Positions 6,902 to 41,177 are shown, counted from the stretch's first letter. The stretch is 41,177 nucleotides of DNA from Anaerolineae bacterium (GCA_034434235.1 DAOTZV010000190.1:1-41177); one strand, 5' to 3'. Numbers and translations: made by a program. Notes: generated by a model from the letters alone, not told the origin.

Positions 6902-6990
6902 AAATCCTTAGGCGCCTTCCAGGAGGTGGGCAGGGATTCCAAAAAATCAACGACCAATCGAGCGAAACGATCGAAATCGTCCAGGCATCG

Positions 6991-7083
6991 TTATTCGTCA
7001 AATGTCACCCTTTGCAAGGCTCTCAAATCGCTCAAATACTCGGCGAGCATCTTCAAGCGGGTCTCGATGACCTCGGTATCCAT
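6991..7083 (-). pseudogene. HepT/DUF86-like toxin N-terminal remnant (30 codons, MDTEVIETRLKMLAEYLSDLRALQRVTFDE)
   Basis: A short ORF overlaps the 3' end of the MNT gene in another frame. Its start matches the characteristic N-terminus of HepT/DUF86 proteins, but it stops after 30 codons, only ~85 nt before gatB. Confidence 0.3.
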
Positions 7084-7555: not shown

Positions 7556-7730
7556 AGGTCTGGCTTCCCGATCAGGATATAGTATAATCCTGTTCTACGG
7601 CAAATCGCAAATCGCCCAATCGCCGGCCGCCGATGACGGCCGCGCGATAGAGCGCAGATAGGACTTTGCAGCCCGTTGCGCTATAATATGGCCGTTGACG
7701 ATTTCACATCCTACAAACGGAGGATAAGCC

Positions 7731-9360: not shown

Positions 9361-10383
9361 GGCGTGCACGCGTCGGCGCAGGCCGACGCCGCGTGGGGGG
9401 CGATTGAAATCGCGGCTAAGGGGCGCGGTGGCGCCGCGATGCCCACCTCCGTGGGCGTGCACCGTCGGCGCAGGCCGACGCCCAGCGGCGGGGCGATTGA
9501 AATCGCGGCTAATGGGCGCGGTGGCGCCGCGACACCCACCTCCGTGGGCGCGCACGCGTCGGCGCAGGCGGTCGCCGCGTGGTGGGGCGATTGAAATCGC
9601 GGCTAACGGGCGCGGTGGCGCCGCGGCACCCACCTGCGTGGGTGCGGTCGCGTCGGCGCAGGCCGACGCCGCGTGGTGGGGCGATTGAAATCGCGGCTAA
9701 GGGGCGCGCCGGCGCCGCGACACCCACCTGCGTGGGTGCGGTCGCGTCGGCGCAGGCGGTCGCCGCGTGGGGGGGCGATTGAAATCGCGGCTAACGGGCG
9801 CGGTGGCGCCGCGGCACCCACCTGCGTGGGTGCGGTCGCGTCGGCGCAGGCCGACGCCCAGCCGCAGGCTCCTTAGCCGCGACCTCGGTCGCCCAGGACA
9901 TTAACGGGCGCGCCGGCGCCGCAACGCCCACCGCCGTAGGCACCGCCGCGTCGGCGCAGGCCGACGCCGCGTGGTGGGGCGATTGAAATCGCGGCTAATG
10001 GGCGCGGTGGCGCCGCGACACCCACCTGCGTGGGTGCGGTCGCGTCGGCGCAGGCCAACGCCCAGCCGCAGGCTCCTTAGCCGCGACCTCGGTCGCCCCC
10101 AAGCGGCGGGGCGATTGAAATCGCGGCTAATGGGCGCGGTGGCGCCGCGACACCCACCGCCGTGGGCGCGCACGCGTCGGCGCCGCGACACCCACCGCCG
10201 TGGGCGCGCACGCGTCGGCGCAGGCCGACGCCCAGCCGCCGGCTCCTTAGCTGCGACCTCGGTCGCCCAGGACATTAACGGGCGCGCCGGCGCCGCGACA
10301 CCCACCGCCGTGGGCGTGCACGCGTCGGCGCAGGCCGACGCCCAGCGGCAGGCTCCTTAGCCGCGACCTCGGTCGCCCAGGAC
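9361..10383. repeat. Tandem array (~10-11 units, period ~94-125 bp) of a mosaic hairpin-rich MITE/BIME-like repeat
   Basis: Module A GGGGCGATTGAAATCGCGGCTAA occurs 7 times. It is interleaved with module B GGGCGCGGTGGCGCCGCG, module C CACCCACCTGCGTGGGTGCG, module D CGTCGGCGCAGGCCGACGCC and the optional module E CAGGCTCCTTAGCCGCGACCTCGGTCGCCC. Each module is an imperfect palindrome. The segments between modules are homologous variants of one another, not unique spacers. Confidence 0.85.
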
Positions 10384-10401
10384 TGGCCAGGCGGTTGATT
10401 C

Positions 10402-10430
10402 TTGACAGGACGGCGATTGCCGGATAACAT
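10402..10430 (+). promoter_or_regulatory. Sigma70-like promoter TTGACA-17-TAACAT upstream of trxA
   Basis: -35 TTGACA at 10402-10407, 17-nt spacer, TAACAT at 10425-10430, ~38 nt before the trxA ATG. Confidence 0.5.
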
Positions 10431-10468
10431 GACCTGGAACCACGCAGGACAGGAGAACACAAAAACGC

Positions 10469-10792
10469 ATGACTGCTCCGATACCGATCACCGATGCCAC
10501 CTTTGAAGCCGAAGTGCTCCGCGCCAGGGGCCTCGTGATCACCGATTTCTGGGCCGATTGGTGCGTGCCCTGCAAGCGCATCGCGCCGATCCTGGAAGAG
10601 CTGGCGGCCGAATACGCCGGCAAGCTCAAAGTCACCAAGCTCGATGTGGACAGCAACCCGGCCACGCCGGAAAAGTACGGCATCACGGGCATTCCCACCC
10701 TGCTGGTCTTCCGCGATGGCCAGCTCGCCGACTCCATCGTCGGCTTCCTGCCGAAGGAGCGCCTGATCGAGCGCCTGAAGCCGCTCTTCTGA
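10469..10792 (+). CDS. trxA: Thioredoxin
   Basis: 107 aa with WADWCVPCK active-site motif and a thioredoxin fold-sized protein. Confidence 0.9.
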   Translation: MTAPIPITDATFEAEVLRARGLVITDFWADWCVPCKRIAPILEELAAEYAGKLKVTKLDVDSNPATPEKYGITGIPTLLVFRDGQLADSIVGFLPKERLIERLKPLF

Positions 10793-10840
10793 GAGCGACT
10801 GCTCCGGCATTGCGGCCGGTTCGTGGACGGTCGGCCCTGT

Positions 10841-10869
10841 TTGACACGTCGTCCGTCTTGTGCTATATT
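10841..10869 (+). promoter_or_regulatory. Near-consensus sigma70 promoter TTGACA-17-TATATT driving the trpB2 leader
   Basis: Read directly: TTGACA 10841-10846, spacer 17 nt, TATATT 10864-10869, in a locally AT-rich patch. Confidence 0.6.
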
Positions 10870-10877
10870 CTTCTTGC

Positions 10878-11224
10878 AAATCGAATACCGCCACTGAAAA
10901 GCTGTGAACTGGACTAGTAGGCGTTCGTCAAGGGCCCCAGAGAGCCGACCGTTGAGCTGCGAGGTCGGCGCCGCTGCGGACGTTGAATGGACCAGGGAGC
11001 TGCAGGCCGAAAGGTTCGCCGAGTAGGCCGCGCCGGAGACGTCACCGTTATCACGACCGAGGGGATCGGATCTGTCCTGCGCAGCGTTGCGCGGGCCATG
11101 CGCCAGTGCAATGGCGGCCTGTCCCTGCTAATGAGTGAGGCCGTTGCGCAACGGCCTAATCGGGGTGGCACCGCGGGTGGTTTACAAGCCCTCGTCCCCT
11201 TTTCGGGGCGAGGGCTTTTGATTT
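10878..11224 (+). promoter_or_regulatory. T-box riboswitch leader (probable Trp specificity) with intrinsic terminator
   Basis: T-box consensus AAUCGGGGUGGCACCGCGGGUGG at 11158-11183. An AGAGAG motif lies near the 5' end. A candidate specifier GAAUGGA (UGG + A) is present. Terminator AAGCCCTCGTCCCC-TTTTC-GGGGCGAGGGCTTTTGATTT at 11187-11224 overlaps the T-box 3' arm. Leader is ~430 nt from promoter to ATG. Confidence 0.6.
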
Positions 11225-11310
11225 CCGGCGGGCGCAACCCTCTCCCCTCCCAAATACGCCCGCCAGTTTATCATCAGGCCGAACAGCCCATATCACCCAG
11301 GGAGGGAGCT

Positions 11311-12699
11311 ATGTCAAACGAAACGCAACTCAACAATCTGAGCGAGGATTTCCGGCTCGTCTTGCCCCAATCGCGCATTCCAACCCACTGGTACAACATC
11401 CTGGCCGACATGCCGGTGGCGCTGCCGCCGGTGTTGCATCCGGCCACCAAACAGCCCGTCACGCCGGCCGATCTGGCGCCCCTCTTCCCGATGGCGCTGA
11501 TCATGCAGGAGGTCAGCAGCGAACGCTACATCCCCATCCCCGACGCGGTGCGCGACATCTATCGCCTGTGGCGGCCCACGCCCCTGATCCGCGCCGTGCG
11601 CCTGGAGAAGGCGCTGGACACGCCCGCGCACATCTACTATAAGTACGAAGGATCGAGCCCAAGCGGCAGCCACAAGCTCAACACCTCGGTGCCGCAGGCC
11701 TACTACAACAAGATGGAAGGGGTCCAGCGCATCGCCACCGAGACCGGCGCCGGCCAGTGGGGATCGGCCCTGGCGATCGCCGGCGATTTCTTCAAGATCG
11801 CCATCGAAGTGTTCATGGTGAAGATCAGCTATCAGCAGAAGCCGTATCGCCGCTCCATCATGCAGACCTACGGCGCCACCGTCACGCCCAGCCCGTCGGA
11901 CCGCACCCAGGCCGGCCGGACGATCCTGGCGCGCAATCCGGAGAGCAACGGCAGCCTGGGCATCGCCATCTCCGAGGCGGTCGAGGTGGCGGCCACCAGC
12001 GGCGGCACGACCAAGTACTCCCTCGGCTCGGTGTTGAATCACGTCCTGTTACATCAGACGGTGATCGGCCAGGAGGCGCTGGACGGCATGGCCGAGATCG
12101 GCGAGTACCCGGATGTGGTGATCGGCTGCGTAGGCGGCGGCTCCAACTTCGCCGGGCTGGCGTTCCCCTTCCTGCACAAGAACTTGACCGAGGGGAAGCA
12201 GACGCGCTTCATCGCGGTCGAGCCGAGCTCGTGCCCCAGCCTGACGAAGGGCATCTACGCCTACGACTACGGCGACACGGTGGGCCTGACGCCGCTGATC
12301 AAGATGTACACGCTCGGACACGACTTCGAGCCGGCGGCGATCCACGCGGGCGGCCTGCGCTATCACGGCATGGCGCCCACCATCTCCGCGCTGGTGCGGG
12401 CCGGCTACATCGAGCCGCGCGCCTACACCCAAAACGCGTGCTTCGAGGCCGGCGTCTTCTTCGCCCGCCAGGAAGGGATCATCCCCGCGCCGGAGACGAC
12501 GCACGCCATCCGCGCGGCCATTGACGAGGCCCTGGCCGCCCGCGAGAAGGGCGAAAAGAAGGTCATCCTCTTCAACCTCTCCGGGCACGGGCACTTCGAC
12601 ATGGGCGCCTACGACGCGTATCTGGCCGGCCGGTTGGCCGACAACGGCTTCTCGGCCGAGAACATGGAGAAATCGCTGGCCACGTTGCCGCAGGTGTGA
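11311..12699 (+). CDS. trpB: TrpB-like PLP-dependent tryptophan synthase beta subunit, stand-alone TrpB2 type
   Basis: 463 aa, longer than TrpB1. Has the HKLN lysine motif (SGSHKLNT) and a GGGSN glycine loop. GGAGGGAG RBS before the ATG at 11311. No other trp genes are adjacent. Confidence 0.85.
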
Positions 12700-23060: not shown

Positions 23061-23272
23061 TTCGCGTCGAAGCCGGTGGTTCGTTGCGCACGTATATCGC
23101 GCCGCAAACCACCCTGGACGGGGTCGCTTCGGTCGGCGAAGCAATCCAGAAACTGCATCTGCCGGCCGACGTGGCCCTCATCATCACGGTCAACGGTCGC
23201 ATTGCCCATTGGACGACCCCCCTCCACGATGGCGATGTGTTGCAGCTTTTCCCGACCATCGGTGGGGGATGA
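23057..23272 (+). CDS. MoaD/ThiS-like small sulfur-carrier-type protein (C-terminal GGG)
   Basis: 71 aa, MIRVEAGG...LFPTIGGG. ATG overlaps the LacI stop (ATGA), GCAGGAG RBS. Sits directly upstream of the AOR gene. Confidence 0.55.
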   Translation: MIRVEAGGSLRTYIAPQTTLDGVASVGEAIQKLHLPADVALIITVNGRIAHWTTPLHDGDVLQLFPTIGGG

Positions 23273-23357
23273 GATGGCCAGCCACCAGCAAGGACAATCC
23301 AAAGCAACAAGCACTCCCACAGTCTAATAGCATCCAAACACAGCAAAGAGGTGAATC

Positions 23358-25271
23358 ATGAGCGTCGGAGCAACCTGGGGCAAGATCCTGCACGTGGATC
23401 TGACCGAACGAAAGACATGGGTCGAGACCCCGCCGGATGAGCTGTATCTCAAACTGGTCGGCGGCCGCGCCCTCGAGGCATATCTTCTCCTGCGCGACCT
23501 GCCGGTCGGCGCCGATCCTCTGGGGCCGGAGAATCTGTTGATCTTCGCGCCGGGCGTCTTTCAGGGCACCAACCTGCCGGGCGCCGGCCGCCACAGCGTG
23601 GGCGCCAAGAGCCCGCTGACGGGTGCCATCGGCAGCTCGGAGGCGGGCGGCTGGTGGGGCCACGAGTTCAAGCGCGCGGGCTGGGACGCGCTGGTCGTCC
23701 ACGGCCGGGCCGATTCGCCCGTCTATCTGTGGATCAACGACGACCAGGTCGAGATCCGGCCGGCCGACCATCTGTGGGGCCGCGACGTGGCCGATGTCGA
23801 AAACGCCATTCGCGCGGAGCTCAACGAGCCCCGGCTGCGGGTGGCCCAATGCGGCATCGCCGGCGAGAACCTGGTCCTGATGGCCAATGTCATCAACGAC
23901 AACAATCGGGCGGCCGGCCGCAACGGCCTGGGCGCGGTGATGGGCAGCAAGAAGCTCAAGGCGGTGGCCGTGCGCGGCACCAAGAACGTGCCGGTCGCCG
24001 ACCGCAAGCGCCTGACCGAGCTGTCCAAGTGGTTGGGCGAGAATTACAAGACCCTGGCGGCCTGGGCGCACGAAAAGGGCACGCCGGGCGGCCTGACGGG
24101 CCTCAACCGGGTCAGCGCGCTGCCCACGCGCAACTTCCAGGATCCCGAGTTTCCCGACGCCGAAAGCATCGGCTGGGAGACGCTGCACACCAGCATCCTC
24201 ATCGGCCGCGATACCTGCCAGGCATGCCCCATCGAATGCAAGCAGGTCGTCTCTTACGACGGCGAGGACTTCCCCGACTCGCCCGCCTTCAAGACCCAGG
24301 TGAAGGACCTGGTCAAGATAGATAAGGTCTACGGCGGCCCGGAGTACGAGACCCTCGGCTCCTACGGCAGCACCTGCGGCGTGAACGACATCGTGGCCGT
24401 CTCCAAGGCCAACGAGTGGTCGGCGCGCTGGGGACTCGACCCGATCAGCACCGGCATGACCATCGCGTTCGTCATGGAGTGCGTGGAGCACGGCCTGTTG
24501 ACCGCCGAGATGACGGGCGGCTTCCTGCCGCGCTGGGGCAACGCCAGGGACATGCTCGAGGCGGTGGACATGATCGCCCATCGCCGCGGCTTCGGCGACA
24601 AGATGGCCATGGGCTCCAAGCGGCTGGCGCAATGGATCGGCAAGGGCGCGGAAGAGCACCTGGTGGAGGTCAAAGGCCAGGAGCTGCCGATGCACGAGCC
24701 GCGCTACAAGGCCGCGCTGGGCATCGGCTACGCAGTCGCACCGGTGGGCGCCGATCACATGATGAACATCCACGACTCGGGCTATGCCACGCCGGGGCGG
24801 AGCCTGGAGCGCGTCAACACCGTGTACAAGGTGGGCCCCATGCCGTCCACCGAGTTGAGCACGGAGAAGATGACCCTCTTCTACTACGAGGTCAACTGGC
24901 AGCACTTCCAGGACTGCGCCATCTGCTGCATGTTCTATCCTTACGACTACATCCAACTGGCCGAAGCGCTCAGCGCCATGACGGGCCACGAATACAAGCC
25001 GCTGGACATCCTGGCGGTCGGCGAGCGCGCGCAGCAATTGTGTCGGCTCTTCAACCTGCGCGAGGGCTTCACCGAGAAGGACGACCGGCTGCCGAAGCGG
25101 GTGATGCAGGCGTTCAAGACGGGGCCGCTGGCCGGCGTCGAGATCACCGAGGAGGCGTTCTACCGCTCGCGCCAGACCTGGTACAGCCTGATGGGCTGGA
25201 CGCCCGAAGGGGTGCCCACCCAGGAACGGCTGGCGCAGTTGGGACTGACGGAACTGCTGGAAACGAAATAG
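23358..25271 (+). CDS. Aldehyde:ferredoxin oxidoreductase family (tungsten/molybdopterin-dependent AOR)
   Basis: 637 aa. AOR N-terminal domain (LHVDLTERKTW...GGRALEAYLL) and the 4Fe-4S cysteine motif DTCQACPIECKQ. Length is typical of the AOR family. Confidence 0.9.
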   Translation: MSVGATWGKILHVDLTERKTWVETPPDELYLKLVGGRALEAYLLLRDLPVGADPLGPENLLIFAPGVFQGTNLPGAGRHSVGAKSPLTGAIGSSEAGGWWGHEFKRAGWDALVVHGRADSPVYLWINDDQVEIRPADHLWGRDVADVENAIRAELNEPRLRVAQCGIAGENLVLMANVINDNNRAAGRNGLGAVMGSKKLKAVAVRGTKNVPVADRKRLTELSKWLGENYKTLAAWAHEKGTPGGLTGLNRVSALPTRNFQDPEFPDAESIGWETLHTSILIGRDTCQACPIECKQVVSYDGEDFPDSPAFKTQVKDLVKIDKVYGGPEYETLGSYGSTCGVNDIVAVSKANEWSARWGLDPISTGMTIAFVMECVEHGLLTAEMTGGFLPRWGNARDMLEAVDMIAHRRGFGDKMAMGSKRLAQWIGKGAEEHLVEVKGQELPMHEPRYKAALGIGYAVAPVGADHMMNIHDSGYATPGRSLERVNTVYKVGPMPSTELSTEKMTLFYYEVNWQHFQDCAICCMFYPYDYIQLAEALSAMTGHEYKPLDILAVGERAQQLCRLFNLREGFTEKDDRLPKRVMQAFKTGPLAGVEITEEAFYRSRQTWYSLMGWTPEGVPTQERLAQLGLTELLETK

Positions 25272-25277
25272 TCGGCC

Positions 25278-26753
25278 ATGCGTATCTTGAACCAGGACGT
25301 GTTGGCGTCGCACGGCAACGTGGCCGGACGCAGGGCCCTCGTCGAGATCCTGGAGGCGGGGCTGGAGGCGGCCGACCCGTATCACAACACCCGCCGCCTC
25401 CTCCGCCGGGAGGGCCACTGGCTGATCGTCGGCGGCCGCGACTTCGAGCCCGCCGGCGATCCGCAGGCCGGCGATGAAATCATCAACCTGGATGAGGTGG
25501 ATCGCATCTTCGTCTTCGGCGCCGGCAAGGGCGTGCAGCGGATCGCCAAAGCCATCGAGGATGTGCTGGGCGAGCGGCTGGCCGGCGGCCACGTGATCGC
25601 CAAGCACGGCGACGAGACGATCTGCGAACGGATCGGGGTGACGCACGGCGCGCATCCCGTGCCCGACGAGGGATGTGTCCTCGGATGTCAGCGCATTTGG
25701 GAGTGGTGCCGCAACCCGGATGGCTCGCCCAGGTTGAGCGACCGCGACCTGGTATTCACGATCAGCACGAACGGCGTCTCGGCCCTGTTGACGTGGCCAT
25801 CCGCGGGCATCAGCATCGAGGATGTGCGCCGGCTCACCTACATGATGCAGATCGAGCGGGGCGTGCCCACCGGCGATCTGAACCCGATCCGCAATCACAT
25901 AGATCGGATGAAGGGAGGACGTCTCACCCGCTACCTTCAGCCGGCGCGGGCGATTCACATCATCGGGATCGATCCGGGCTCGTACCGCCAGTTGATCTAC
26001 CGCAATCTGTGGTTGCACAACCTGCCCGATTGCACCACCTTCGCCGACGCGCAGGCGATGTTGCGCAAATGGGATGCCTACGATGAGGCGCCGCCGGCCA
26101 TCCGGGTGCACATCGAACGGGCCGATCCGGCGGAAGAAACGGTGAAGGCGGCCGAGTTTCTCCGCTGGCGCTCGCGCATCTTCGGGGTCATGCCGCACCA
26201 TCTGAGCATGATCCCCACCGCGCAGCGCAAGGCCGAGGAGTGCGGCTTCAGGGCGCTGTGGCTGGCGCACGACCTGCGGGGCGAGGCGAAGGACGTGGCC
26301 AAAGCCGTGGCCGCGGTGGCCCGATGCATCGAAACGATGGGCCAGCCGGTCGAGCCGCCGGTGGCACTCTTCAGCACCGGCGAGATCGTGGTCACGGTGG
26401 GCCAGGAACGCGGGATGGGCGGTCGCAACCAGGAGTATTGCGTCGCGGCCGCGCTGGAGATCGCCGGCAGCCGCCACATCCTGATGGCCGCGGTGGATTC
26501 CGACGGCACCGATGGCCCCGGCATTCAATTCAGCGAGCCGAAGCTGGACGGGGTCACCTGCCTGGCCGGCGGCATCGTGGACGGCGAGACCGCGCGCGAG
26601 GCCGGCGAGCGCGGGGTGAACCTGGTGGAGGCGCTCAAACATCACGACACGTCGCCGGCGCTCTATCGGCTCGACAGCGGCGTCATTGCAACGCAGAACA
26701 TCAGCATCGGCGATTTCGCGGTGACGCTGGTGACGGGAAGGCGGGAGCCGTGA
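25278..26753 (+). CDS. Glycerate 2-kinase, MOFRL family (DUF4147 + MOFRL domains)
   Basis: 491 aa. Domain order and motifs (FVFGAGKG, DSDGTDGP) are typical of GckA/TtuD-type glycerate-2-kinase and hydroxypyruvate reductase. Starts 6 nt after the AOR stop. Confidence 0.8.
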   Translation: MRILNQDVLASHGNVAGRRALVEILEAGLEAADPYHNTRRLLRREGHWLIVGGRDFEPAGDPQAGDEIINLDEVDRIFVFGAGKGVQRIAKAIEDVLGERLAGGHVIAKHGDETICERIGVTHGAHPVPDEGCVLGCQRIWEWCRNPDGSPRLSDRDLVFTISTNGVSALLTWPSAGISIEDVRRLTYMMQIERGVPTGDLNPIRNHIDRMKGGRLTRYLQPARAIHIIGIDPGSYRQLIYRNLWLHNLPDCTTFADAQAMLRKWDAYDEAPPAIRVHIERADPAEETVKAAEFLRWRSRIFGVMPHHLSMIPTAQRKAEECGFRALWLAHDLRGEAKDVAKAVAAVARCIETMGQPVEPPVALFSTGEIVVTVGQERGMGGRNQEYCVAAALEIAGSRHILMAAVDSDGTDGPGIQFSEPKLDGVTCLAGGIVDGETAREAGERGVNLVEALKHHDTSPALYRLDSGVIATQNISIGDFAVTLVTGRREP

Positions 26754-26802
26754 AGCATGAAACGTCAAACGTCAGGCGTCAGAGGGGAAATGAGGGGGAA
26801 TC

Positions 26803-32339: not shown

Positions 32340-34691
32340 ATGGCAGAAGCTACGCAGACCGCGGTGGCCGACCGCCTGGCTCAACTGAAGGCGGTCTTTC
32401 CCCATTGGGAGAAAACCAAAGACCTGGTCGACAACCTGCTCGACATCATGCTGAACTACCGGCAGAGCGGACATCCGGGCGGCTCGCGCTCGAAGGTGCA
32501 CGCGCTGCTCACGCTGCTGCTCAGCGGCGCGATGCGCTGGGACATCCGCGCGCCGGAAAAGCGCTTCGCCGATCGCTTCGTGCTGGTGGCCGGGCATACC
32601 GTCCCGTTGATCTACTGCACGATGGCCGTGCTCGACGAAGCGCTGCGCATCAAGTACGAGCAAACCGGCGATGAAAAATATCGCCTGCGCCCCGAACGGG
32701 CCGTCTTCTGGGAAGACCTGCTGGGCTTTCGGCGCTGGCGCGGCCTTCCCGGCCATGCCGAGATGGCCGGCAAAACCCTCTTCCTGAAGTTCAACACCGG
32801 GCCGTCGGGCCACGGCAGTCCGGCCGCGGCCGGCGAGGCGCTGGCGCTCAAGCGCGCCGGCGCGGGCTGCGTCAAGGTGTTCGCGCTGGAAGGGGAAGGC
32901 GGCCTCAGCGCGGGCGCGGCGCATGAGACCATGAACTCGGCCTGGGGCCTGGGACTCGACAACCTGCACTACTTGCTGGACTGGAACGATTTCGGCATCG
33001 ACGCGCATCCGGTCAGCGCGGTGACCTACGGCACGCCGACCGACTGGTTCGGCAGCCACGGGTGGCGCGTCTACGGCGTCGAGCAGGGGAGCGAGTGGGA
33101 GCCGCTGGCGCAGGCGCTCCTCAGCATGACGACCGAGCAAGACCCGCAGAAGCGCCCCTCGGTGATGTGGTTCAAGACGCGCAAGGGCCGCGGGTACGGC
33201 AAGTACGACTATGCCTCGCACGGCGTGCCGCACCCGCTCAACAGCGAGGCGTTCTGGGCCACCAAGCGCGAGTTCGCCGAGCGCTACGGCGTCGAATTCG
33301 TCAACATGGGCGGCCCCGCGCCGGCCGATCCGGAAGCCCTGCGCGCCGAGTTTCGCGCCAACCTGGAGGCGGTGATCGGCGTCCTGCGCCGCGATCAGGC
33401 GCTGGTGGATTACCTGGCCGACACGCTGGTGGCCATCGGCGATTCGGTGCCGGCCGAGCTGCCGACCTTCCGGCTGGGCAAGAAGGGCAACCCCTTCAAA
33501 GACCCCCGTCTGTTCGACTATCGCAACTATCCGGCCGAGCTCTATCTGCCGCCGGGCAAATCGGCCGCCAACCGCAACGCGCTGGCGAAGTGGAGCGCGT
33601 GGATCAACGCGTTCGGCGCGCGGGAGTATGGCCGGCCGATCTTCATCGCCTCATCGGCCGATCTGGCCGGCTCGACTAACATCAGCGGCTTTGCGGAGGC
33701 GTTCGGCGATTTCAAAGGCTACGGCTGGTACGAGCGGGTCGGCAACGATGAAGGCGCGCTCCTGCCGCAGGAGATCACCGAGTTCACCAACTCCGGCATC
33801 ATGGCCGGCATCGCGACCGTCAACCTGGCCGCCGATCCCGAACGGGAGTTCGACGGCTTTTGGGCCGCCAGCTCGACCTACGGCTCCTTCGCGTATCTCC
33901 TGTACGGCCCGATGCGGCTCTTCAGCCAGCTCAGCCAGGACTGCGACCTGAAGGTGGGCAAGGCGCTGTGGGTGGCGGGCCACTCTGGCCCCGAGACGGC
34001 CGAGGATAGCCGAACGCACTTCGGCATCTTCGCGCCGGGGGTCACCCAGCTCTTCCCCGAAGGGCAGATCATCAACCTGCACCCGTGGGAGTACAACGAG
34101 GTGCCGGTGTTGCTGGGTGCGGCGCTGGCCACCGATGCGCCGATCATCGCGCTGCACCTGACCCGGCCGCCGATCACCATTCCCGATCGCGCGAAGCTGG
34201 GCATCCCGTCGCACTTCGAGGCCGCACGCGGGGCCTACATCATCCGCGACTACAAGCCCGGCCGACCGTGCGACGGGACGTTCATCGTCCAGGGCACCAG
34301 CGCGGTGAACAACATCGTGCAGCTGTTGCCGCAACTGGACGAGTCCGATCTGAACATCAAGATCGTCTGTGCGACGAGCCATGAGCTCTTCGCCATGCAG
34401 CCGGCTCCGTATCGCGAGCGGGTCATCGGCCCGGCCGACCGGGTGAATTCGACCGTGATCTGCACGCAGGCGCGGATCACCATGCGCCAGTGGATCTTCA
34501 ACAAGATGGCCGAGGAATACGCCATGACGGCCGACTGGGACAACCGCTGGCGCACGGGCGGCACGGTAGACGAGGTCATCGAAGAGGCGCACCTTTCGCC
34601 CAGATGGCTGATGGAGGGGATCCGGCGCTTCGTGGCCGACAAAGAGAAGCGGATGGCGGCCATTCGCGCAGAAGTGGATGCCGCATGTTGA
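32340..34691 (+). CDS. Transketolase-family TPP enzyme, atypical long form (783 aa)
   Basis: TPP motifs SGHPGGS and GEGGLSAG (GDG-like) plus TK-like pyrimidine-binding and C-terminal domains. The ATG is 2 nt after the upstream stop. Confidence 0.8.
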   Translation: MAEATQTAVADRLAQLKAVFPHWEKTKDLVDNLLDIMLNYRQSGHPGGSRSKVHALLTLLLSGAMRWDIRAPEKRFADRFVLVAGHTVPLIYCTMAVLDEALRIKYEQTGDEKYRLRPERAVFWEDLLGFRRWRGLPGHAEMAGKTLFLKFNTGPSGHGSPAAAGEALALKRAGAGCVKVFALEGEGGLSAGAAHETMNSAWGLGLDNLHYLLDWNDFGIDAHPVSAVTYGTPTDWFGSHGWRVYGVEQGSEWEPLAQALLSMTTEQDPQKRPSVMWFKTRKGRGYGKYDYASHGVPHPLNSEAFWATKREFAERYGVEFVNMGGPAPADPEALRAEFRANLEAVIGVLRRDQALVDYLADTLVAIGDSVPAELPTFRLGKKGNPFKDPRLFDYRNYPAELYLPPGKSAANRNALAKWSAWINAFGAREYGRPIFIASSADLAGSTNISGFAEAFGDFKGYGWYERVGNDEGALLPQEITEFTNSGIMAGIATVNLAADPEREFDGFWAASSTYGSFAYLLYGPMRLFSQLSQDCDLKVGKALWVAGHSGPETAEDSRTHFGIFAPGVTQLFPEGQIINLHPWEYNEVPVLLGAALATDAPIIALHLTRPPITIPDRAKLGIPSHFEAARGAYIIRDYKPGRPCDGTFIVQGTSAVNNIVQLLPQLDESDLNIKIVCATSHELFAMQPAPYRERVIGPADRVNSTVICTQARITMRQWIFNKMAEEYAMTADWDNRWRTGGTVDEVIEEAHLSPRWLMEGIRRFVADKEKRMAAIRAEVDAAC

Positions 34692-35134
34692 GCCGGACGC
34701 TGTCCGAGAGGGAATGGCCGAAGGAGCCGGGGTCATATGTGCTGCTGCTCCAGGTCGTGTCCCCGCTGACGTTTGAAGCCGGCCGACTGGGCATGATCAC
34801 CCTGCCCGCCGGCCGGTATGCTTACGTCGGCACCGCGCGGGCGACCGGCGGACTGCGCGTCCGGCTGGCGCGCCATGTGCGTTCGCAGAAGCGGCTCTAC
34901 TGGCACATAGATTACCTGGTCCAACGGGCGCCGATCTGGGGCGTTTACTGGCAAGTGACGCCGATTCCCCTGGAGTGTCGGTGGGCACAGGCGCTTCTGC
35001 GCCTCCCCGGCGCCAGCGCGCCTGTGCGCGGCTTCGGCAGCAGCGACTGTCGTCGCGGCTGTCCGGCCCACCTGGTGCGCCTGCCCGATGGCATATCGGC
35101 CGAGGAGGTGGAGGAGGCGCTTGGGGGCGATTGA
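34685..35134 (+). CDS. DUF123-like (GIY-YIG-fold) hypothetical protein
   Basis: 150 aa, HIDYL motif. The ATG overlaps the transketolase stop. Its stop codon (TGA) is supplied by the first repeat module (GGGGCGATTGA). Confidence 0.5.
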   Translation: MLSRTLSEREWPKEPGSYVLLLQVVSPLTFEAGRLGMITLPAGRYAYVGTARATGGLRVRLARHVRSQKRLYWHIDYLVQRAPIWGVYWQVTPIPLECRWAQALLRLPGASAPVRGFGSSDCRRGCPAHLVRLPDGISAEEVEEALGGD

Positions 35135-35783
35135 AATCGCGGCTAACGGGCGCCGCAGCGCCGCGGCACCCACCTGCGTGGGTGCACGCGTCGGCGCAAG
35201 GCCGACGCCCAGCCGCAGGCTCCTTAGCCGCGACCTCGGTCGCCCCAAAAGCACCGAGCGGCGCAGTAGCGCCGCAATCCAAAACGACCTCGGCGCAGGC
35301 CGACGCCCAGCCCAGGTTTGGGGCGATTGAAATCGCGGCTAACGGGCGCCGCCGCGCCGCCACACCCACCGCCGTGGGTGCACGCGTCGGCGCAGGCCGA
35401 CGCCCAGGTTCGGGGCGATTGAAATCGCGGCTAACGGGCGCCCTGGCGCCGCTGCACCCACCTCCGTGGGTGCACGCGTCGGCGCAAGGCCGACGCCCAG
35501 GTTCGGGGCGATTGAAATCGCGGCTAACGGGCGCCACGGCGCCGATGCACCCACCGCCGTGGGTGCCCGCGTCGGCGCAGGCCGACGCCCAGCCGCCGGC
35601 TCCTTAGCCGCGACCTCGGTCGCCCCACCGTTCAATCGCCCCACCATTCGGTCGCTCGCCGCCGCACCCACCTTCGTGGGTGCGGGCCGCGTCGGCGCAG
35701 GCCGACGCCCGGCCGCCGGCCCCTTAGCCGCGACCTCGGTCGCCCACAGGGCCCGCCGGGCCGCGGGTTGGGGCGATTGAAAT
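35124..35783. repeat. Second tandem array (~6 units) of the mosaic MITE/BIME-like repeat, truncated at its right end by the IS
   Basis: Module A GGGGCGATTGAAATCGCGGCTAA at 35124, 35326, 35409 and 35504, with a partial copy at 35771. E modules TTAGCCGCGACCTCGGTCGCCC at 35223, 35603 and 35723. Confidence 0.85.
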
Positions 35784-37461
35784 GGGTGCAGTTGCTCTCT
35801 TTTACCAGGTTCATTCGTGAGTATGTAGAGTTCGTCAGACAAGTCCATAAGAGGGTAGCGGTGCTGGCGTCGTGCATTTCAGGGAGAGATTTTTGTGCTC
35901 ACGTTGGGCCTGCTCTTTGGTTCTCTCATGAACGAATTCGATAAACGCATCCCAGTCGTCGTTCACTTCAATACAGCGCAGTTGCAACAGGTGTTCCGCG
36001 CGTTCCCTGATCCAACGCATGCCTCCGCAGTCAAAGCGCTTGGCGATCACGTAATTCACCGCGCCCTCAACGACTCCCGAAGAGATCTCCAAATCACGTT
36101 CGCGCAGTTGCTTGTAGTTCATCTTATCTACACGCTTGGCAATGTAGTTGCGCACTTGCGCCAAACGTGCGCGGGCACCGGACTTGGCCGGGCCCAACTG
36201 CGCAAGACGTTTGTCCATCTCCGCCACGATCTCCGCCACACGTCCAGCGTACAGGGCTTCTTTCTGGGCCGCCACCCACTGGCGCAACTCGGGACTGCCT
36301 TCCCGATACAGGCATTCACCGGCCTCCCACAGATACTCTGTCACGTGGTAGACGTCAATGGTATGCTCTGCTTTCGGGAAGTATTCGGCGATGTAGCGCT
36401 CCAGGTCGTTGTCGCCATCGGTCACCACCTGGATCAGCTTGTGACTCTCTGGCCCGAAGCCGCGCTTGGTGGCCTCACGGCGGGCGATCGCGACGGCGTG
36501 CCGCTTGGGCGCATAAGAAGCATACACTTTCTTGTTGATCGGCCCCTCCAACTGCCCCTCGGCACTCTGTTTCAGCGTATACATCGTTACTATGGTGGCC
36601 ATTTTCCCGTTCTTGGCCTTGTCGCCCTTCTGGCGCCGCGGCTTGGCCTCGCGGCATTGACGGGCCGCCCGGCCCCGATGCCGTGGCGAGCCAGGCTGGG
36701 GCTGCGCCAGGCGTTGGCCGCGCCGCTTCGCCAACTCCGCCTCCGTAGCGGTCGGGGTGGCCTTGCTATCGATCTGCACAATCAGCACTTCTCCATCCCC
36801 TTCCGGCGCCGGCGCGCTCTCGAACCACGCCCCGGTATGCTGACCCAGTCCCAATACCATGCCCTCAATACTCTCCTGAGCAGGCGACCAATGCAAGAAC
36901 ATGCTCAAGAGCAGGGCGGTCTGCGCATAACTGACCTTGGTCGCCAGCCGAGCCGCATAGCTGCGCAGCACCATGCTGAACCCGTCGTCGGTCAACCCCA
37001 ACTCGACATCCAAGGGATAATAGCCCTTACCCTTGCTGTAGAGGTAAGTGCGCCAATAGCGCACCTTGCCGAAGAACGTCCCCAGCAAGCGCGAATGGGG
37101 GCCAAGTTGCTTATACCCCGCCTCTGCCTCGGTGTGCGCCGCCTGGAATCGTTCGTGGCGCATACACAGGAAAAGCTGGACGAACAGACAACCCAGGGCC
37201 AGAACCCTGGGAATCAGTTGGGTCTCAAAGGCAAAAAAGGTGAGCGCTTGACCACGCAAGACCCAGGTGACCAGTTCTCCCACTTCTTGCTCAATTCTGG
37301 CTTTCACCTCTGCCGTCGTGAGAGGAGTAGCTGCATCGCTCTCCGTCAACACGCTGGACGAACATTTCTCCTCCATAAGGCCTCCTCAAGTACGCTTTTG
37401 AGGCCTATTATGCCATACTTTGTGACCCGGCGATGTGAGGTAAAAAAGAGCGATTACACCC
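35784..37461 (-). mobile_element. Insertion sequence (~1.68 kb) with 23-bp imperfect terminal inverted repeats GGGTGCAGTTGCTCTCTTTTACC / GGGTGTAATCGCTCTTTTTTACC and a single transposase gene
   Basis: The IRs were found by reverse-complementing the right flank. The left end abuts a half module A (GGGGCGATTGAAAT|GGGTGCAG). No direct target duplication is visible. Lower GC than the surrounding core. Confidence 0.75.
35835..37376 (-). CDS. DDE-type IS transposase (513 aa; ISKra4/IS1634-size class, family uncertain)
   Basis: A Lys/Arg-rich linker, a DDE-like arrangement (QIDSK ... VVTDGDNDLERY ... HVTEYLW) and a C-terminal MRWIRERAEHLLQLR motif typical of transposases. Confidence 0.75.
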   Translation of the reverse strand: MEEKCSSSVLTESDAATPLTTAEVKARIEQEVGELVTWVLRGQALTFFAFETQLIPRVLALGCLFVQLFLCMRHERFQAAHTEAEAGYKQLGPHSRLLGTFFGKVRYWRTYLYSKGKGYYPLDVELGLTDDGFSMVLRSYAARLATKVSYAQTALLLSMFLHWSPAQESIEGMVLGLGQHTGAWFESAPAPEGDGEVLIVQIDSKATPTATEAELAKRRGQRLAQPQPGSPRHRGRAARQCREAKPRRQKGDKAKNGKMATIVTMYTLKQSAEGQLEGPINKKVYASYAPKRHAVAIARREATKRGFGPESHKLIQVVTDGDNDLERYIAEYFPKAEHTIDVYHVTEYLWEAGECLYREGSPELRQWVAAQKEALYAGRVAEIVAEMDKRLAQLGPAKSGARARLAQVRNYIAKRVDKMNYKQLRERDLEISSGVVEGAVNYVIAKRFDCGGMRWIRERAEHLLQLRCIEVNDDWDAFIEFVHERTKEQAQREHKNLSLKCTTPAPLPSYGLV

Positions 37462-38813
37462 ATATCAACCAGGACTACTTCCACACCCCAACGCTCCTGC
37501 TGCAAGAACCGATTCATGCGCCCCCAAACAGTCTGCCGAATGATCTTACGTGGCAGAAACTGTCGTTGTGCGAAATCGTAATCGAACATCGCATCCAGAT
37601 CTCTCTCTGCTACTACATCGCGAAGAACATGACCGGCCATCGCTTCGACGCTCGCTTGCCAATTATCAACATTGTAAACCGCGTCAACGATGTCCTCATC
37701 GGCAACAGCAAAATAATCCTTCTGAGATGCTGGCGGCGGTTTTGCGCCGCCAGCGCCCTGCATGGCCATATCAATCAGATCAGGTGAGCCTACAGTCGCA
37801 TCGGCCTCAGACGTCTTATTCTCGGTCGGTGCAGACGCGGCATTCGGCTTGGGCGTCTGAGATGGTATGCCCCCAGACGGCTTCGACTTGTCGGCTACAG
37901 CCAGTGACCAAAGAAAACTTGCCAACCCGGCAAGCACTCGTCGCCACGGTGAAAGGTTTGATGGAAGAGATTGCGGCGGGAACGGCGGCTGAGTAGTATC
38001 TTGAGAAGGTTTCTCGGTTGCGGGAGCGGCTTTGGAACCCGTGTCTTTCTTCCGTCTAATCTGATACCAAAGCCGGAGTTCAATATCAAGAGGAACTCCG
38101 TCACGAGTATAGACCTTGCTTACTTGTAAGGTCTTCTGCTGCCTTCGCAAATCAACGATGGCCCGTGGGCTTTCATAGAGCTCCAGGAATCGGGCTCCGC
38201 CCTTGACCACCCTTGTATATTTCCCACCACATTCCAAGACGGCGGCATAACCATAGTTGACAAAAATCAACCCCGGGCCGCCGACTTTTTGCAAAAACCC
38301 TCCCGGACCTCCTTCTCGAGTGGTTTGCGATTGACCGCCTCCGACGACCATCACGGGATAATTCAACCCAAAGTAAAGGCTCTTCAGGAACTTTAACGCC
38401 TCTTTGCGATCAAGATCGGGGCTCAGAGCAGTTACCCAGTGCAATCGGGCTCGACCGTAAATCTCGGTGAGGGCAAGAACAGGAACGATGCCACAGGGCA
38501 CCGCCATGGCGAAAGAGAAGAAAAGACGAGTTACAGGATCGGGGATGAACTCGGGAAGCAGCCAGTCCAGCAGGTAGCTGACGATCAGGATGATGAAACC
38601 AGCAGGGAGCACGCCCCGGTAGACAAATTTGCGATAGCGCTTATACGGCTTGCCATAAGCCAACACCAAGAACACCAGAAAGGCAGCAACAGCTGCAGCC
38701 CATACCCCCCACTTTATCAGTGCAACAAGGATCAATACCAGCCCCGCGCCTGCTGCGATCTTCCAGCGCTGTGAACGGCCCTCTGCCTTCCGCTCGCCCG
38801 TCTTTTCGGCCAT
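37386..38813 (-). CDS. Membrane protein: 4 TM helices + SPFH/band-7 domain split by a ~90-aa low-complexity insert; C-terminus replaced by IS sequence
   Basis: SPFH motifs GPGLIFVNYGY...YTRDGVPLDIELRLWYQI and ...QASVEAMAGHVLRDVVAERDLDAMF align to the SPFH protein at 7731. The last ~25 codons (37386-37461) lie inside the IS right end. GGAGGTGG RBS. Confidence 0.7.
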   Translation of the reverse strand: MAEKTGERKAEGRSQRWKIAAGAGLVLILVALIKWGVWAAAVAAFLVFLVLAYGKPYKRYRKFVYRGVLPAGFIILIVSYLLDWLLPEFIPDPVTRLFFSFAMAVPCGIVPVLALTEIYGRARLHWVTALSPDLDRKEALKFLKSLYFGLNYPVMVVGGGQSQTTREGGPGGFLQKVGGPGLIFVNYGYAAVLECGGKYTRVVKGGARFLELYESPRAIVDLRRQQKTLQVSKVYTRDGVPLDIELRLWYQIRRKKDTGSKAAPATEKPSQDTTQPPFPPQSLPSNLSPWRRVLAGLASFLWSLAVADKSKPSGGIPSQTPKPNAASAPTENKTSEADATVGSPDLIDMAMQGAGGAKPPPASQKDYFAVADEDIVDAVYNVDNWQASVEAMAGHVLRDVVAERDLDAMFDYDFAQRQFLPRKIIRQTVWGRMNRFLQQERWGVEVVLVDMGVIALFYLTSPGHKVWHNRPQKRT

Positions 38814-38916
38814 TTCGATTCCACCTCCATCAGCTCAATGCGCCAGACCGCGATATGGGGCCGTCTCGACTATCCTTGCTTCCAAGCAGAAGCAGAAAAG
38901 AGTAATTCTCCGAACT

Positions 38917-40458
38917 TCAGGCCAATAGCCCCGCCAGCTTCATCAGTCTGAGACCCTCCAACCGCAGCACCTTGGGAATGATGGCCCTGTAAATGTCACA
39001 ATACGGCGATCTGGTATCATAACGCCCCGTTGCACGATAGGTGACCAGCGGACAACCGCCTGCGCACCAATACTTCCAGGCGCAGTCGCGGCAACCCTCC
39101 TTTGCATCTACGCTGAGGTTTTGCAGGCCCACCCGATCCCGTTGGGCATCGCGCAGCGGATCGTCGCTGGATACGTCCGTAACGGGCCGGTCAATCATCA
39201 TGTGGCACTTGGCGACTCCCCCGTGCGGATCAAAAACCAGGTAGGATTCGCCGACGCCGCAGGTCCGTTCGTGGGGACGATCCATCACACAACGATCTAG
39301 CAGCGCACCGAGCGGACTGTCCACGGGCAATTTCGCTTCCATGACGGCCAACGCCTGTTCCAGCGCGCCGACAACCAGATCTGTCGCCAGACCGAGATCG
39401 TCTGCCCGTGCATGGCTGTTGTCTCGAAACAGATTAAAGTTGAAGGACAATTCCCGATCGAGCAGATAACCCACCAGCGCAGGCAAGCCCCGCGCGCTGC
39501 GTCCGGTCACTGTGATGCTGATGAACGGCTTGAGACTGCACGCCGCCAATCGGTCGAGGGTTTGGTTGACCTCGGCAAAGGACCCTCGCCCATCCGCGCG
39601 CCTCCGCTGTCCATCGTGATCGAGACCGAGCCCATCGAGAGAGACCATGATGCGGATGCCTCGCGACGCGAGTTCTGCCACGGCAGCGTCATCCAGCATC
39701 GTTCCGTTGGTCAGAATGATCGAATCGAGCTCCAGCCCGGCCGAACTCGCGGCGCGAGAAGCATACCCGTGAAGAGCGTAGACCAGATCCAACCTGAGCG
39801 ACGGTTCTCCGCCCGCGAACTTGATCTTGATGCGCTGGAAGCCGCCGCGCACCGCCGACCGGATGAGCGCGTCGATCGCGGCGCGCCCCGCGCTCTCGCT
39901 CATGAAGTCGCCAGATCTGGCAAGATAGCAGTAGTCGCACCGGAGATTACATGCATTCGTGAGATGTAGCCATGCGCCGAGCACGCGGGGAGTTGTGGCC
40001 CGCAACCGGGGCGAAGATGACTCTCCCGCCGGCTCCAAGAGGCCATGCGCCGCCATTTGGGCGACAAGGTTCGCCAGGTTCCGATCGGCGTAGGACGATT
40101 CATCGGGGAACAACTCCGCCCCAGGCGTGCGATGCCGTTCCCATACCTGCCGCGCCGCGGCGTTCAGCACGGCTACCCCCGGAACAGCGCGCGGGTTCGC
40201 CATCAATGTATGGCCCGACGGCAGCGGCTGCGTGAACACATCCGCACATCGCAGAGACGCCCGCAGAGAATCCACACGTTCCGTCGGGATGAGGCCGGCT
40301 TCGGCGCAGGCACAATCACACTGCTCGGCCAGGAACATCCGTCCCTTATGCTGAAGCGTCAAGGTGGAAAGCAAAACAGGCACGATCTCCGGCATCAAAC
40401 CTCTCCCCAGGATATCATCATACCAGGCCAATGATGGACCGACGATTTCTGAAAGCAA
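38917..40458 (-). CDS. Radical SAM / SPASM-domain protein (peptide-maturase-like) with a ~150-aa N-terminal extension
   Basis: CxxxCxxC motif CNLRCDYCY at ~aa 160. C-terminal SPASM-like cysteines CGVGESY...CRDCAWKYWCAGGCP...YCDIY. Lower GC (~55%). Confidence 0.85.
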   Translation of the reverse strand: MLSEIVGPSLAWYDDILGRGLMPEIVPVLLSTLTLQHKGRMFLAEQCDCACAEAGLIPTERVDSLRASLRCADVFTQPLPSGHTLMANPRAVPGVAVLNAAARQVWERHRTPGAELFPDESSYADRNLANLVAQMAAHGLLEPAGESSSPRLRATTPRVLGAWLHLTNACNLRCDYCYLARSGDFMSESAGRAAIDALIRSAVRGGFQRIKIKFAGGEPSLRLDLVYALHGYASRAASSAGLELDSIILTNGTMLDDAAVAELASRGIRIMVSLDGLGLDHDGQRRRADGRGSFAEVNQTLDRLAACSLKPFISITVTGRSARGLPALVGYLLDRELSFNFNLFRDNSHARADDLGLATDLVVGALEQALAVMEAKLPVDSPLGALLDRCVMDRPHERTCGVGESYLVFDPHGGVAKCHMMIDRPVTDVSSDDPLRDAQRDRVGLQNLSVDAKEGCRDCAWKYWCAGGCPLVTYRATGRYDTRSPYCDIYRAIIPKVLRLEGLRLMKLAGLLA

Positions 40459-41177
40459 CCACGAAATCGGGATGCGCCTCAGCGATCGTCCTGTCCTGGC
40501 GCAACATCTTGTCGGTTTCGAGTTTTTCGATGAACAGGTCGCACCATCTTCTCGCCAAGTCAGGCCCCGAGATCTTGGAAAGCTTGGTGATGTTGTCGAG
40601 CAAATGGCCGATGTGCTGTCTGTAACGCGCTGAGCCGTAGCCCGGGTCAGATGCCAGCCCCGCGTATCCCGTCAGATAGTGTCGCAGCGATTCATCGAAG
40701 TCGCGCAATACGAAATAATAGGCGCCCAGCTCGATCTCCAGCAGATTCTCGAACACACCGAACTGAAAGATCAGCGGTCTGCCGTTGCCCGATTGCTTCT
40801 TGCGCTTCTCCTCCAGAGCAGAACGCAATCGCTCAATGAGGCCGCGCTCTCGCTCCAGAAGATGCGGATCCGAACATCCGTCAGGGAACCGTGCGCTTGC
40901 CATATCATCGGCCAGGAAGGCGATCTCGGTCAAGTTTTCAAGCTCCTCCAGCATGTCATGGCACTCGATCGCAAAAGCCAGCCCCTCCTCGAAGTGCGCA
41001 AGGGCCTGCTCCAACAGTTGAAGGCGCTTTCCGCGATCGTTGGTCCGCAATGCCTGGTCATGATACAGGCGTCCCCGACGGCGGTGTGCAGTGGAGCTGA
41101 TCTGAACCAGCCCATATTGCCGACACAGATCCAGGCTACGATCCATGTCTTGTCTGGCGCGCTTTTCGCGCTTCTTG
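40418..41177 (-). CDS. Helical (TPR-like?) hypothetical protein, 5' end beyond window; 41-nt overlap with the rSAM gene start
   Basis: The reading frame stays open to the window edge (KKREKRARQDMDRSL...). The overlap implies translational coupling with the rSAM gene. Confidence 0.5.
   Translation of the reverse strand, partial: KKREKRARQDMDRSLDLCRQYGLVQISSTAHRRRGRLYHDQALRTNDRGKRLQLLEQALAHFEEGLAFAIECHDMLEELENLTEIAFLADDMASARFPDGCSDPHLLERERGLIERLRSALEEKRKKQSGNGRPLIFQFGVFENLLEIELGAYYFVLRDFDESLRHYLTGYAGLASDPGYGSARYRQHIGHLLDNITKLSKISGPDLARRWCDLFIEKLETDKMLRQDRTIAEAHPDFVVAFRNRRSIIGLV

Follow-up and report, generated by a model that had tools for sequence, protein, structure and literature searches.

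A radical-SAM/SPASM enzyme with a fused cysteine motif in a multi-ATPase cassette of Chloroflexota: a candidate for the peptide-modifying part of a proposed STAND conflict system

We analysed a stretch of 41,177 nucleotides from an Anaerolineae bacterium (GCA_034434235.1, DAOTZV010000190.1:1-41177; hereafter the window), whose last part carries a gene for a radical S-adenosylmethionine (rSAM) enzyme with a SPASM region, lying between the genes of a membrane SPFH protein and a STAND NTPase. A conserved multi-ATPase cassette, known mainly from Chloroflexota, has its 3' end in the segment 37462-41177; the window edge cuts this copy short, and an insertion sequence (IS) interrupts it. Gene identities, domain architecture, synteny and the disruption by the IS are established. 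As to function, the odds seem to us somewhat in favour of the enzyme and its neighbours being the peptide-modifying module of a Chloroflexota STAND conflict system, with the enzyme's own N-terminal extension as the likeliest substrate and the SPFH protein as one interchangeable module.

The three genes that an earlier note on this DNA had proposed for the segment are all real and all lie on the minus strand, as three collinear reading frames called between 37386 and 41177. Their relatives were taken from 90 loci, in which open reading frames (ORFs) were called and then clustered; a scan of species genomes with the single protein had yielded only 6 loci, 2 of them unrelated rSAM genes, and a metagenome profile scan was required to enlarge the set. 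The rSAM relatives were reduced to 67 non-redundant groups for synteny counts, and the slot downstream of the rSAM gene was scored in 50 evaluable loci. Family membership was judged by Pfam gathering and NCBIfam curated cut-offs, and defence models were those of PADLOC-DB 2.0. Residue numbers of the cysteines and motifs of the enzyme follow the 513-aa (TTG-start) numbering. The enzyme gene, its parts and the gap behind it are as follows (RRE, recognition element of RiPPs, the peptides made by ribosomes and modified after translation; AF2, AlphaFold2).

38917..40395, minus strand: rSAM/SPASM enzyme, predicted to modify peptides, 492 aa from the ATG at 40395 (Pfam, NCBIfam, public contigs, AF2)
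40258..40395, minus strand: N-terminal extension before the RRE, with a flexible loop behind the short beta-strand LLS at 40374..40366 (alignments, AF2)
40306..40320, minus strand: CDCAC motif, Cys47, Cys49 and Cys51 (nearly invariant in 32 aligned homologues; translation verified)
40030..40257, minus strand: RRE, a PqqD-like leader-recognition domain (CteB profile match, Foldseek)
39928..39951, minus strand: CNLRCDYC, the CxxxCxxC motif of the rSAM cluster, residues 170-177 (Cys170, Cys174 and Cys177 invariant)
38998..39261, minus strand: SPASM region with cysteines 400, 418, 456, 459, 465, 469 and 487 (seven invariant columns)
38814..38916, minus strand: intergenic gap of 103 nt, holding the ribosome-binding site of the SPFH gene, GGAGGTGG, and no peptide ORF

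The identity of the enzyme as an rSAM/SPASM protein was borne out. It scored 57 bits with Pfam Radical_SAM (PF04055; cut-off 29.5), which places it in the superfamily; CNLRCDYC is invariant among 32 homologues (alignment, with the translation verified); and the SPASM pattern for two auxiliary 4Fe-4S clusters (C..G....C, CxxCxxxxxCxxxC, C) is present with all seven cysteines. The Pfam SPASM model itself gave no match in the protein at E<0.01. The suspicion that the N-terminal ~150 residues form an RRE-type domain was likewise upheld: a profile of the 32 homologues matched CteB with E = 4e-33 over CteB residues 20-237, the RRE included, and a Foldseek search with the AF2 model of the N-terminal domain (N-domain) returned the RRE domains of TbiB1, PbtF and TigE as best matches. 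The AF2 secondary structure agrees with the PqqD-like winged-helix fold of an RRE, which has three strands plus three helices. The full AF2 model has a confidence score (pLDDT) of 84, and its closest folds are CteB, TigE, ChlB, anaerobic sulfatase-maturating enzyme (anSME), SkfB and SuiB. The sactisynthase CteB is the closest solved relative.

Among curated families, the best NCBIfam matches were all peptide maturases: nif11 rSAM (TIGR04064, 139 bits against a cut-off of 519), PapB (NF047865, 132 against 340), QhpD (TIGR03906, 103 against 453), SCIFF (TIGR03974, 100 against 425), geopeptide and DynA, all far below cut-off. FxsB (TIGR04269) scored 69 bits against 370, and the enzyme reaches no curated family cut-off in NCBIfam or PADLOC. 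The enzyme is of the peptide-maturase type, an rSAM/SPASM protein with an RRE, and the earlier note's comparison with SuiB/AlbA-like maturases was right. The maturases of the CteB, PapB, QhpD and nif11/SCIFF kind share with this enzyme the order of RRE, CxxxCxxC core and seven-Cys SPASM region and give the best sequence, profile and fold matches, but identity is only 15-20% and all cut-offs are missed widely. This enzyme further differs from the CteB type in having some 45 extra N-terminal residues with the CxCAC motif and no adjacent precursor gene, and its genomic partner, a STAND NTPase, is neither a protease nor a transporter. No description of this rSAM family was found in the searchable literature, itself incomplete.

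The start of the gene bears on what precedes the RRE. An alternative start at TTG 40458 would give 513 aa and a 41-nt overlap with the upstream gene, from which translational coupling had been proposed. Homologue N-termini line up with Met22 of the TTG ORF, GGGGAGAGG sits 4 nt before ATG 40395, and the exact 492-aa product is present on four public contigs; an exact-sequence look-up of the 513-aa product in public assemblies gave none. Because homologue N-termini, GGGGAGAGG and the recorded product all support it, ATG 40395, 22 nt past the upstream stop, is most likely the start, and the overlap, which exists only with TTG 40458, gives way to a 22-nt gap.

Throughout the family, the ~45 additional residues ahead of the RRE consist of a PxIL..S strand and then the Cys motif, with the nearly invariant consensus [EDQ]-C-[DN]-C-A-C-[PAS]-[DE]. 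Its copy number varies (DCDCDCDCAC and ETDCFxPPETDCAC are examples), with three copies in P0100 and L073. The L073 enzyme (10016-11641) has three [DN]CACA units, one of which lies between the RRE and the core, and the L008 enzyme (9857-11116) has lost the RRE and kept two GQCDCAF units directly ahead of the catalytic core. The motif is absent from every other ORF of the 90 loci, and it is the only conserved Cys motif in the cassette outside the Fe-S ligands. The stretch that bears it is predicted to be flexible, with pLDDT of about 50-60 in both the full and the N-domain AF2 models. When the N-domain is modelled by itself, the leading strand stays beta-paired and the first ten residues reach a pLDDT of 86. 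Since the pairing persists in this model, the partner of the strand must lie within the N-domain, the RRE sheet being the candidate. The strand appears to dock on the RRE in the manner of a leader peptide.

A separate substrate was sought in several ways. The claim that no precursor ORF lies between the rSAM and SPFH genes was right, the 103-nt gap having no plausible peptide ORF, and in most loci the stop of the STAND gene directly adjoins the rSAM start. ORF clustering gave no conserved small-ORF family in the 90 loci; a precursor gene near the maturase, by which a RiPP cluster is recognised, was found neither in the gap nor in these loci. A profile search with the N-domain returned 284 clusters (at 50% identity) among 1.84 billion representatives, with no convincing stand-alone N-terminal extension among them, and a search by words, with the first 129 aa as query, gave no match. 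Short N-domain matches, considered as split precursors, proved to be contig-end or frameshift fragments, with one false positive in a eukaryotic fibronectin-repeat protein. Because there is no conserved precursor gene and the only conserved cysteines outside the cluster ligands are those of CxCAC, the enzyme's own N-terminal extension is, on sequence grounds, most likely the substrate, either in cis or between enzyme copies. The nearest characterised families all form Cys thioethers, PapB and QhpD linking Cys to Asp or Glu. With CteB, PapB, QhpD and the nif11/SCIFF maturases as nearest relatives, the enzyme most likely cross-links a cysteine-containing peptide, and thioether formation would by analogy be the likeliest chemistry.

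Upstream of the enzyme gene lies the second element of the argument.

40418..41177, minus strand: STAND NTPase (AAA_16 plus TPR), C-terminal ~252 codons and TGA stop (open frame, alignment to L001)

This frame has no stop up to the window edge, and the gene extends past 41177. At L001, the closest related locus, a 1018-aa protein that carries AAA_16 and TPR domains matches it with 72% identity over residues 771-1012; the relative at L087 has both domains too. On account of the open frame and this identity, the ORF is read as the C-terminal quarter of a ~1000-aa STAND NTPase. The 242-aa helical protein of the earlier note is therefore a gene fragment, and its proposed role as a small substrate of the enzyme falls as well, the partner being a ~1000-aa NTPase with no conserved cysteine. 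A comparison of STAND partners and c2 proteins (see below) across the family revealed no conserved cysteine in any partner ATPase. The 252 codons in the window gave no Pfam match, the NTPase part of this copy falling outside it, and domain scans of relatives showed no DNA-binding domain in the long STAND protein. The C-terminal 260 aa were also considered as an rSAM-docking domain or tail; family identity there is only 10-20%, with nothing conserved, and the idea was dropped.

Homologues of the enzyme are, as had been expected, syntenic with the upstream gene. The long AAA_16-TPR gene (cluster c1) adjoins the rSAM gene in 54/67 non-redundant groups, directly upstream and co-directional in 47 and convergent in 7; of the remainder, 9 were not evaluable and 4 lack it. 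The recurrent order is c2, c2, short AAA_16, long AAA_16-TPR, rSAM and a variable slot, and only sometimes does a ~750-aa protein with no Pfam match (c3) precede the c2 genes. The cassette thus has four P-loop ATPases and forms a unit of five to six genes, most of which would lie past 41177 here. This multi-ATPase cassette, and not the gene trio seen in the window, is the conserved unit, and SPFH is one option for its slot. L012 (contig FWPU01000985.1) is an example of a locus with the whole cassette.

The c2 cluster comprises P-loop ATPases (GxGKT) whose N-terminal head can be exchanged: Trans_reg_C, a winged helix-turn-helix (wHTH) domain found on 8/31 of them, TIR, SLFN_AlbA_2 or EAD11. They are distantly related to the Sll1717 family and to the anti-phage protein DS-41, scoring 60-112 bits with NCBIfam DS41_1_antiphage (cut-off 370). 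EAD11-trypsin and EAD1 genes occur in the same operons. The slot after the rSAM gene is occupied by a transmembrane (TM) SPFH protein, of one of two subfamilies, in 7/50 evaluable loci, so that the expected synteny with SPFH exists, but in a minority only. Elsewhere the slot offers a second Band_7, TIR, HD, NYN, SIR2+PNP followed by WD40, KAP NTPase, EAD11-trypsin or NB-ARC-TPR. At L066 (11685-17083), a SIR2_2 + PNP_UDP_1 fusion lies downstream of the rSAM gene and is followed by a 1208-aa WD40 protein, a pair that resembles NAD-depleting defence effectors. At L012 (13520-14392) and L041 (13768-15162), a second, shorter Band_7 protein comes after TM-SPFH, which suggests a paired SPFH arrangement like HflK/HflC. 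It is the TIR, Schlafen, EAD11, SIR2 and NYN-type neighbours, together with the DS-41-like ATPases, that lead us to place the cassette in a conflict setting.

The presence of a SPASM enzyme had been taken to argue against defence. The neighbours just named speak otherwise, and there is a precedent in the FxSxx-COOH/FxsB module, an rSAM+SPASM peptide module tied to AP-ATPase-TPR and vWA-MoxR (VMAP) conflict systems (Kaur et al. 2020, PMC7159879). The same work describes NTPase-centred conflict systems using EADs in multicellular bacteria, Chloroflexi included, whose organisation the cassette shares, and Band7-like domains that, in the VMAP effector position, are superstructure-forming modules. 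FxsB systems have in common with the present cassette that an rSAM+SPASM enzyme with a predicted peptide substrate is genomically coupled, in an EAD context, to a STAND ATPase bearing TPRs. Unlike those systems, the cassette has an enzyme far from the FxsB cut-off, AAA_16 and Sll1717/DS-41-like ATPases, and a candidate substrate fused to the enzyme. The clustered neighbourhoods of the 90 loci gave no FxSxx-COOH peptide, and among Pfam-scanned neighbours neither an HExxH/zincin metallopeptidase nor a vWA-MoxR pair was seen. Of the parts that define an FxSxx-COOH system (the precursor, the peptidase, FxsB and a TIR-AP-ATPase-TPR), the cassette thus shows only the general pairing of an rSAM enzyme with a TPR ATPase. 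The cassette thus differs from the known FxsB theme in its distinct enzyme family, its fused Cys-motif extension, its different ATPases and its variable slot, SPFH included.

DS-41 is a validated anti-phage ATPase (DefensePredictor, 10.1101/2025.01.08.631726). As in it and in the Avs/NACHT STAND NTPases, the effector head at the N-terminus of the cassette proteins (TIR, Schlafen, protease adaptor) can be exchanged and the sensor regions, made of repeats, are divergent, but the similarity is distant, as the DS-41 scores above indicate, and several ATPases joined by an rSAM enzyme do not correspond to a known Avs or DS-41 layout. Another parallel is HaaT (NCBIfam NF041717), a large TPR protein that accompanies the rSAM/SPASM maturase of cyclophane-forming RiPP clusters. 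The match of the STAND protein to it is weak (40.6 bits against a cut-off of 1125) and confined to the TPR region; the cassette ATPases also match the HaaT profile weakly at the P-loop. The haa system has a separate precursor.

In borosins (OphMA), the core peptide is fused to its own modifying enzyme, a SAM methyltransferase with a C-terminal core. A polypeptide of this kind, bearing its own substrate, would explain why no separate precursor gene is seen here, but the present enzyme is of the rSAM/SPASM type, its motif is N-terminal, and its self-modification is a hypothesis.

Taken together, the favoured reading is that the cassette is a biological-conflict (immune-like) system in which the rSAM enzyme would cross-link its own Cys-bearing N-terminal extension, in cis or between copies. 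The modified product, or the enzyme itself, would then act together with the TPR-STAND partner, and TM-SPFH would be a membrane or effector module for which several others can stand in. A bolder form of this idea, which we hold to be possible rather than probable, is a self-contained RiPP-like machine in which the extension is both leader and core. The leader strand would dock on the RRE, the repeated CxCAC units would be cross-linked by the rSAM/SPASM enzyme, and the product, tethered or released, would be a signal, a toxin or a licensing factor for the TPR-STAND NTPase.

Several points weigh against the conflict-system reading. Every functional step in it is inferred. PADLOC gave only weak generic matches, and no system model recognises the cassette; SPFH fills the slot after the rSAM gene in just 14% of the loci that could be evaluated; the strand's docking on the RRE and the Cys motif's access to the active site are suppositions; the CxCxC run could bind a metal or an Fe-S cluster instead; and the chemistry of the cross-link is guessed from distant relatives, at the 15-20% identity given above. 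The wHTH heads of 8/31 c2 proteins are like those of SARP/AfsR regulators, and HaaT and AfsR are weak matches of the TPR region, which makes a regulated natural-product cluster a possible option. In its full form this would be an ordinary RiPP cluster whose precursor lies elsewhere or is undetectably small or divergent, with the ATPases as LAL/SARP-type regulators or HaaT-like accessories, and the CteB-like build of RRE, rSAM and SPASM fits it as well. We nonetheless think it unlikely, for the 90 loci contain no conserved precursor, leader protease or exporter, the same positions carry TIR, Schlafen, EAD11-trypsin, SIR2, NYN and KAP, which are not biosynthetic, and the DNA-binding domain of such a regulator is absent from the long STAND protein.

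A protein substrate seems more unlikely still. The enzyme would then modify a partner (the STAND protein, an effector or SPFH), and CxCAC would be a metal or Fe-S, redox or cluster-delivery site. In its favour, pairing with the STAND gene is tight and nearly universal, the three cysteines (i, i+2 and i+4) would share one face if the strand is extended and could bind a metal, and QhpD and anSME are precedents for protein substrates, both being weaker family matches here. Against this, the motif occurs in one to three copies at variable positions, once between the RRE and the core, and in a stretch predicted to be disordered, both of which would be uncommon in a structural metal site; the partners lack conserved cysteines, the STAND protein's C-terminal region is poorly conserved, and an RRE indicates a leader-type peptide ligand. 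Highly improbable, finally, is a known maturase (anSME, QhpD, PqqE, mycofactocin) or a viperin-like nucleotide-modifying defence enzyme. The matches that suggest one reflect generic similarity of the rSAM core: anSME (TIGR03942) reaches 74 bits, QhpD 103 and viperin 57 both with PADLOC pVip and with NCBIfam, the last at the level of the core only, far under the respective cut-offs of 349, 453 and 180. To our knowledge, viperins combine a compact rSAM core with a C-terminal extension that binds nucleotides and have neither a SPASM nor an RRE domain; this enzyme carries both of these domains. No sulfatase stands beside any relative among the Pfam-annotated or scanned neighbours in the 90 loci, and no qhp, pqq or mft gene was found among the scanned or clustered neighbours there, so that these neighbourhoods effectively refute this alternative already. 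The earlier note's preference for a peptide-maturase type over anSME or viperin agrees with the absence of sulfatase neighbours, the low scores and the presence of RRE and SPASM.

The N-domain is shared by about 284 clusters at 50% identity, a sizeable rSAM family that reaches no curated cut-off, and its near-constant pairing with a STAND gene, together with the lack of a precursor gene, connects RiPP enzymology with STAND immunity in prokaryotes. Should the fused Cys motif be the substrate, the family would offer a compact, testable model of enzyme-tethered peptide cross-linking and would show how a modified peptide can feed a switch of the NOD-like-receptor type. Were the self-contained machine correct, it would be the first case of a substrate fused to an rSAM enzyme, and thioether-type RiPP chemistry would for the first time be seen in a STAND immune pathway. 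A regulated natural-product cluster would instead represent an unexplored product class in Chloroflexota; either way, the family is well defined.

Downstream of the enzyme, the cassette runs into the IS.

37462..38813, minus strand: 4-TM SPFH/Band_7 gene, first 450 codons, cut by the IS (Band_7 matches, junction mapping)
35784..37461, minus strand: ISKra4-like IS with transposase 35835..37376 and 23-bp imperfect terminal inverted repeats (NCBIfam, repeats)

The SPFH protein is a membrane-anchored Band_7 protein with four hydrophobic TM segments at its N-terminus and an HflK-like C-terminal part. Its Band_7 domain is split by an insert of ~115 aa, 33% of which is Pro, Ser or Thr; this disordered insert is confined to this lineage and L001. 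The window copy scored 42.8 bits with Band_7 and the intact allele, a 588-aa protein on the IS-free contig L011 (Ga0068707_1012565), 57.9 bits (cut-off 23.6), which identifies both as SPFH proteins. Of the 4-TM SPFH protein with a Pro/Ser/Thr-rich insert that had been described, the TM segments, the Band_7 domain and the insert (~115 aa) stand, but the ORF is not intact: its last 25 codons are non-native, comprising a hybrid codon 451 and 24 IS-derived codons, and the copy is without the final 138 residues of the intact allele. The missing 3' part was not found elsewhere in the window. Because the IS interrupts the SPFH gene, the cassette in this window is probably inactive. HflK/C and stomatin scaffolds share the membrane anchor and the HflK-like C-terminal similarity of the Band_7 protein, but the four N-terminal TM helices, the lineage-specific insert and the rSAM linkage set this one apart; the loci examined showed neither an HflC nor an NfeD partner. 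On L011 (4152-5255), a co-directional TPR + Peptidase_S24 (LexA/signal-peptidase-like) gene lies 46 nt downstream of the intact SPFH gene. It was considered as a conserved processing protease and set aside, none being present in the other 89 loci.

The transposase of the IS scored 203.5 bits with NCBIfam transpos_ISKra4, against a cut-off of 205, and the inverted repeats are GGGTGCAGTTGCTCTCTTTTACC and GGGTGTAATCGCTCTTTTTTACC, at 35784 and 37461. There is no target-site duplication at the IS ends, and the IS gave no match in a plasmid collection. Contig L011 is 99.9% identical to the window from 41152 down to 37454 and then diverges; the window leaves this IS-free allele at 37461/37462, inside codon 451. 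The same SPFH/IS junction is spanned by an independent assembly, L092, so the insertion is real. The other IS end adjoins a truncated ~92-nt repeat unit. Independent contigs back the right IS flank only, and the two flanks differ by about 8% in GC content. The fall in GC beyond the IS, put at ~68% to ~55% in the earlier note, is real but amounts to 65.8% left of the IS against 57.8% in 37462-41177, and it is not uniform (SPFH 54%, rSAM 62%, STAND fragment 57%). GC is 50% where the IS-free allele continues and 56-59% in related cassettes. The boundary of this lower-GC island, between the 35-kb left part and the cassette, is an IS-mediated join that may stem from a rearrangement or from chimeric assembly at a repeated IS.

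Left of the IS, positions 35100-35783 hold four to five tandem GC-rich units of ~92-98 nt with internal palindromes (GGGGCGATTGAAATCGCGGCTAACGGGC...), 80-93% identical to one another, and the left IS end cuts one ~92-nt unit after ...GATTGAAAT. A CRISPR array was considered here and rejected, since it is entire ~92-nt units that recur and unique spacers are lacking. A DUF123 ORF (34490-35134, plus strand; E = 2e-22) enters this repeat region, and its Arg/Gly-rich N-terminal part looks like an over-extended start. Farther away, a 1192-aa ORF at 23190-26768 (minus strand) has no Pfam match at E<0.001; as long ORFs overlap it on the other strand, the true frame is ambiguous. A second low-GC patch (55-60%) lies at 6500-8500, inside the left part of the window with its ~66% GC. 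At 10895-11202 (plus strand), a T-box leader (Rfam RF00230, 101 bits) stands directly before a PALP-domain ORF dependent on pyridoxal phosphate (10987..12699), overlapping its called start.

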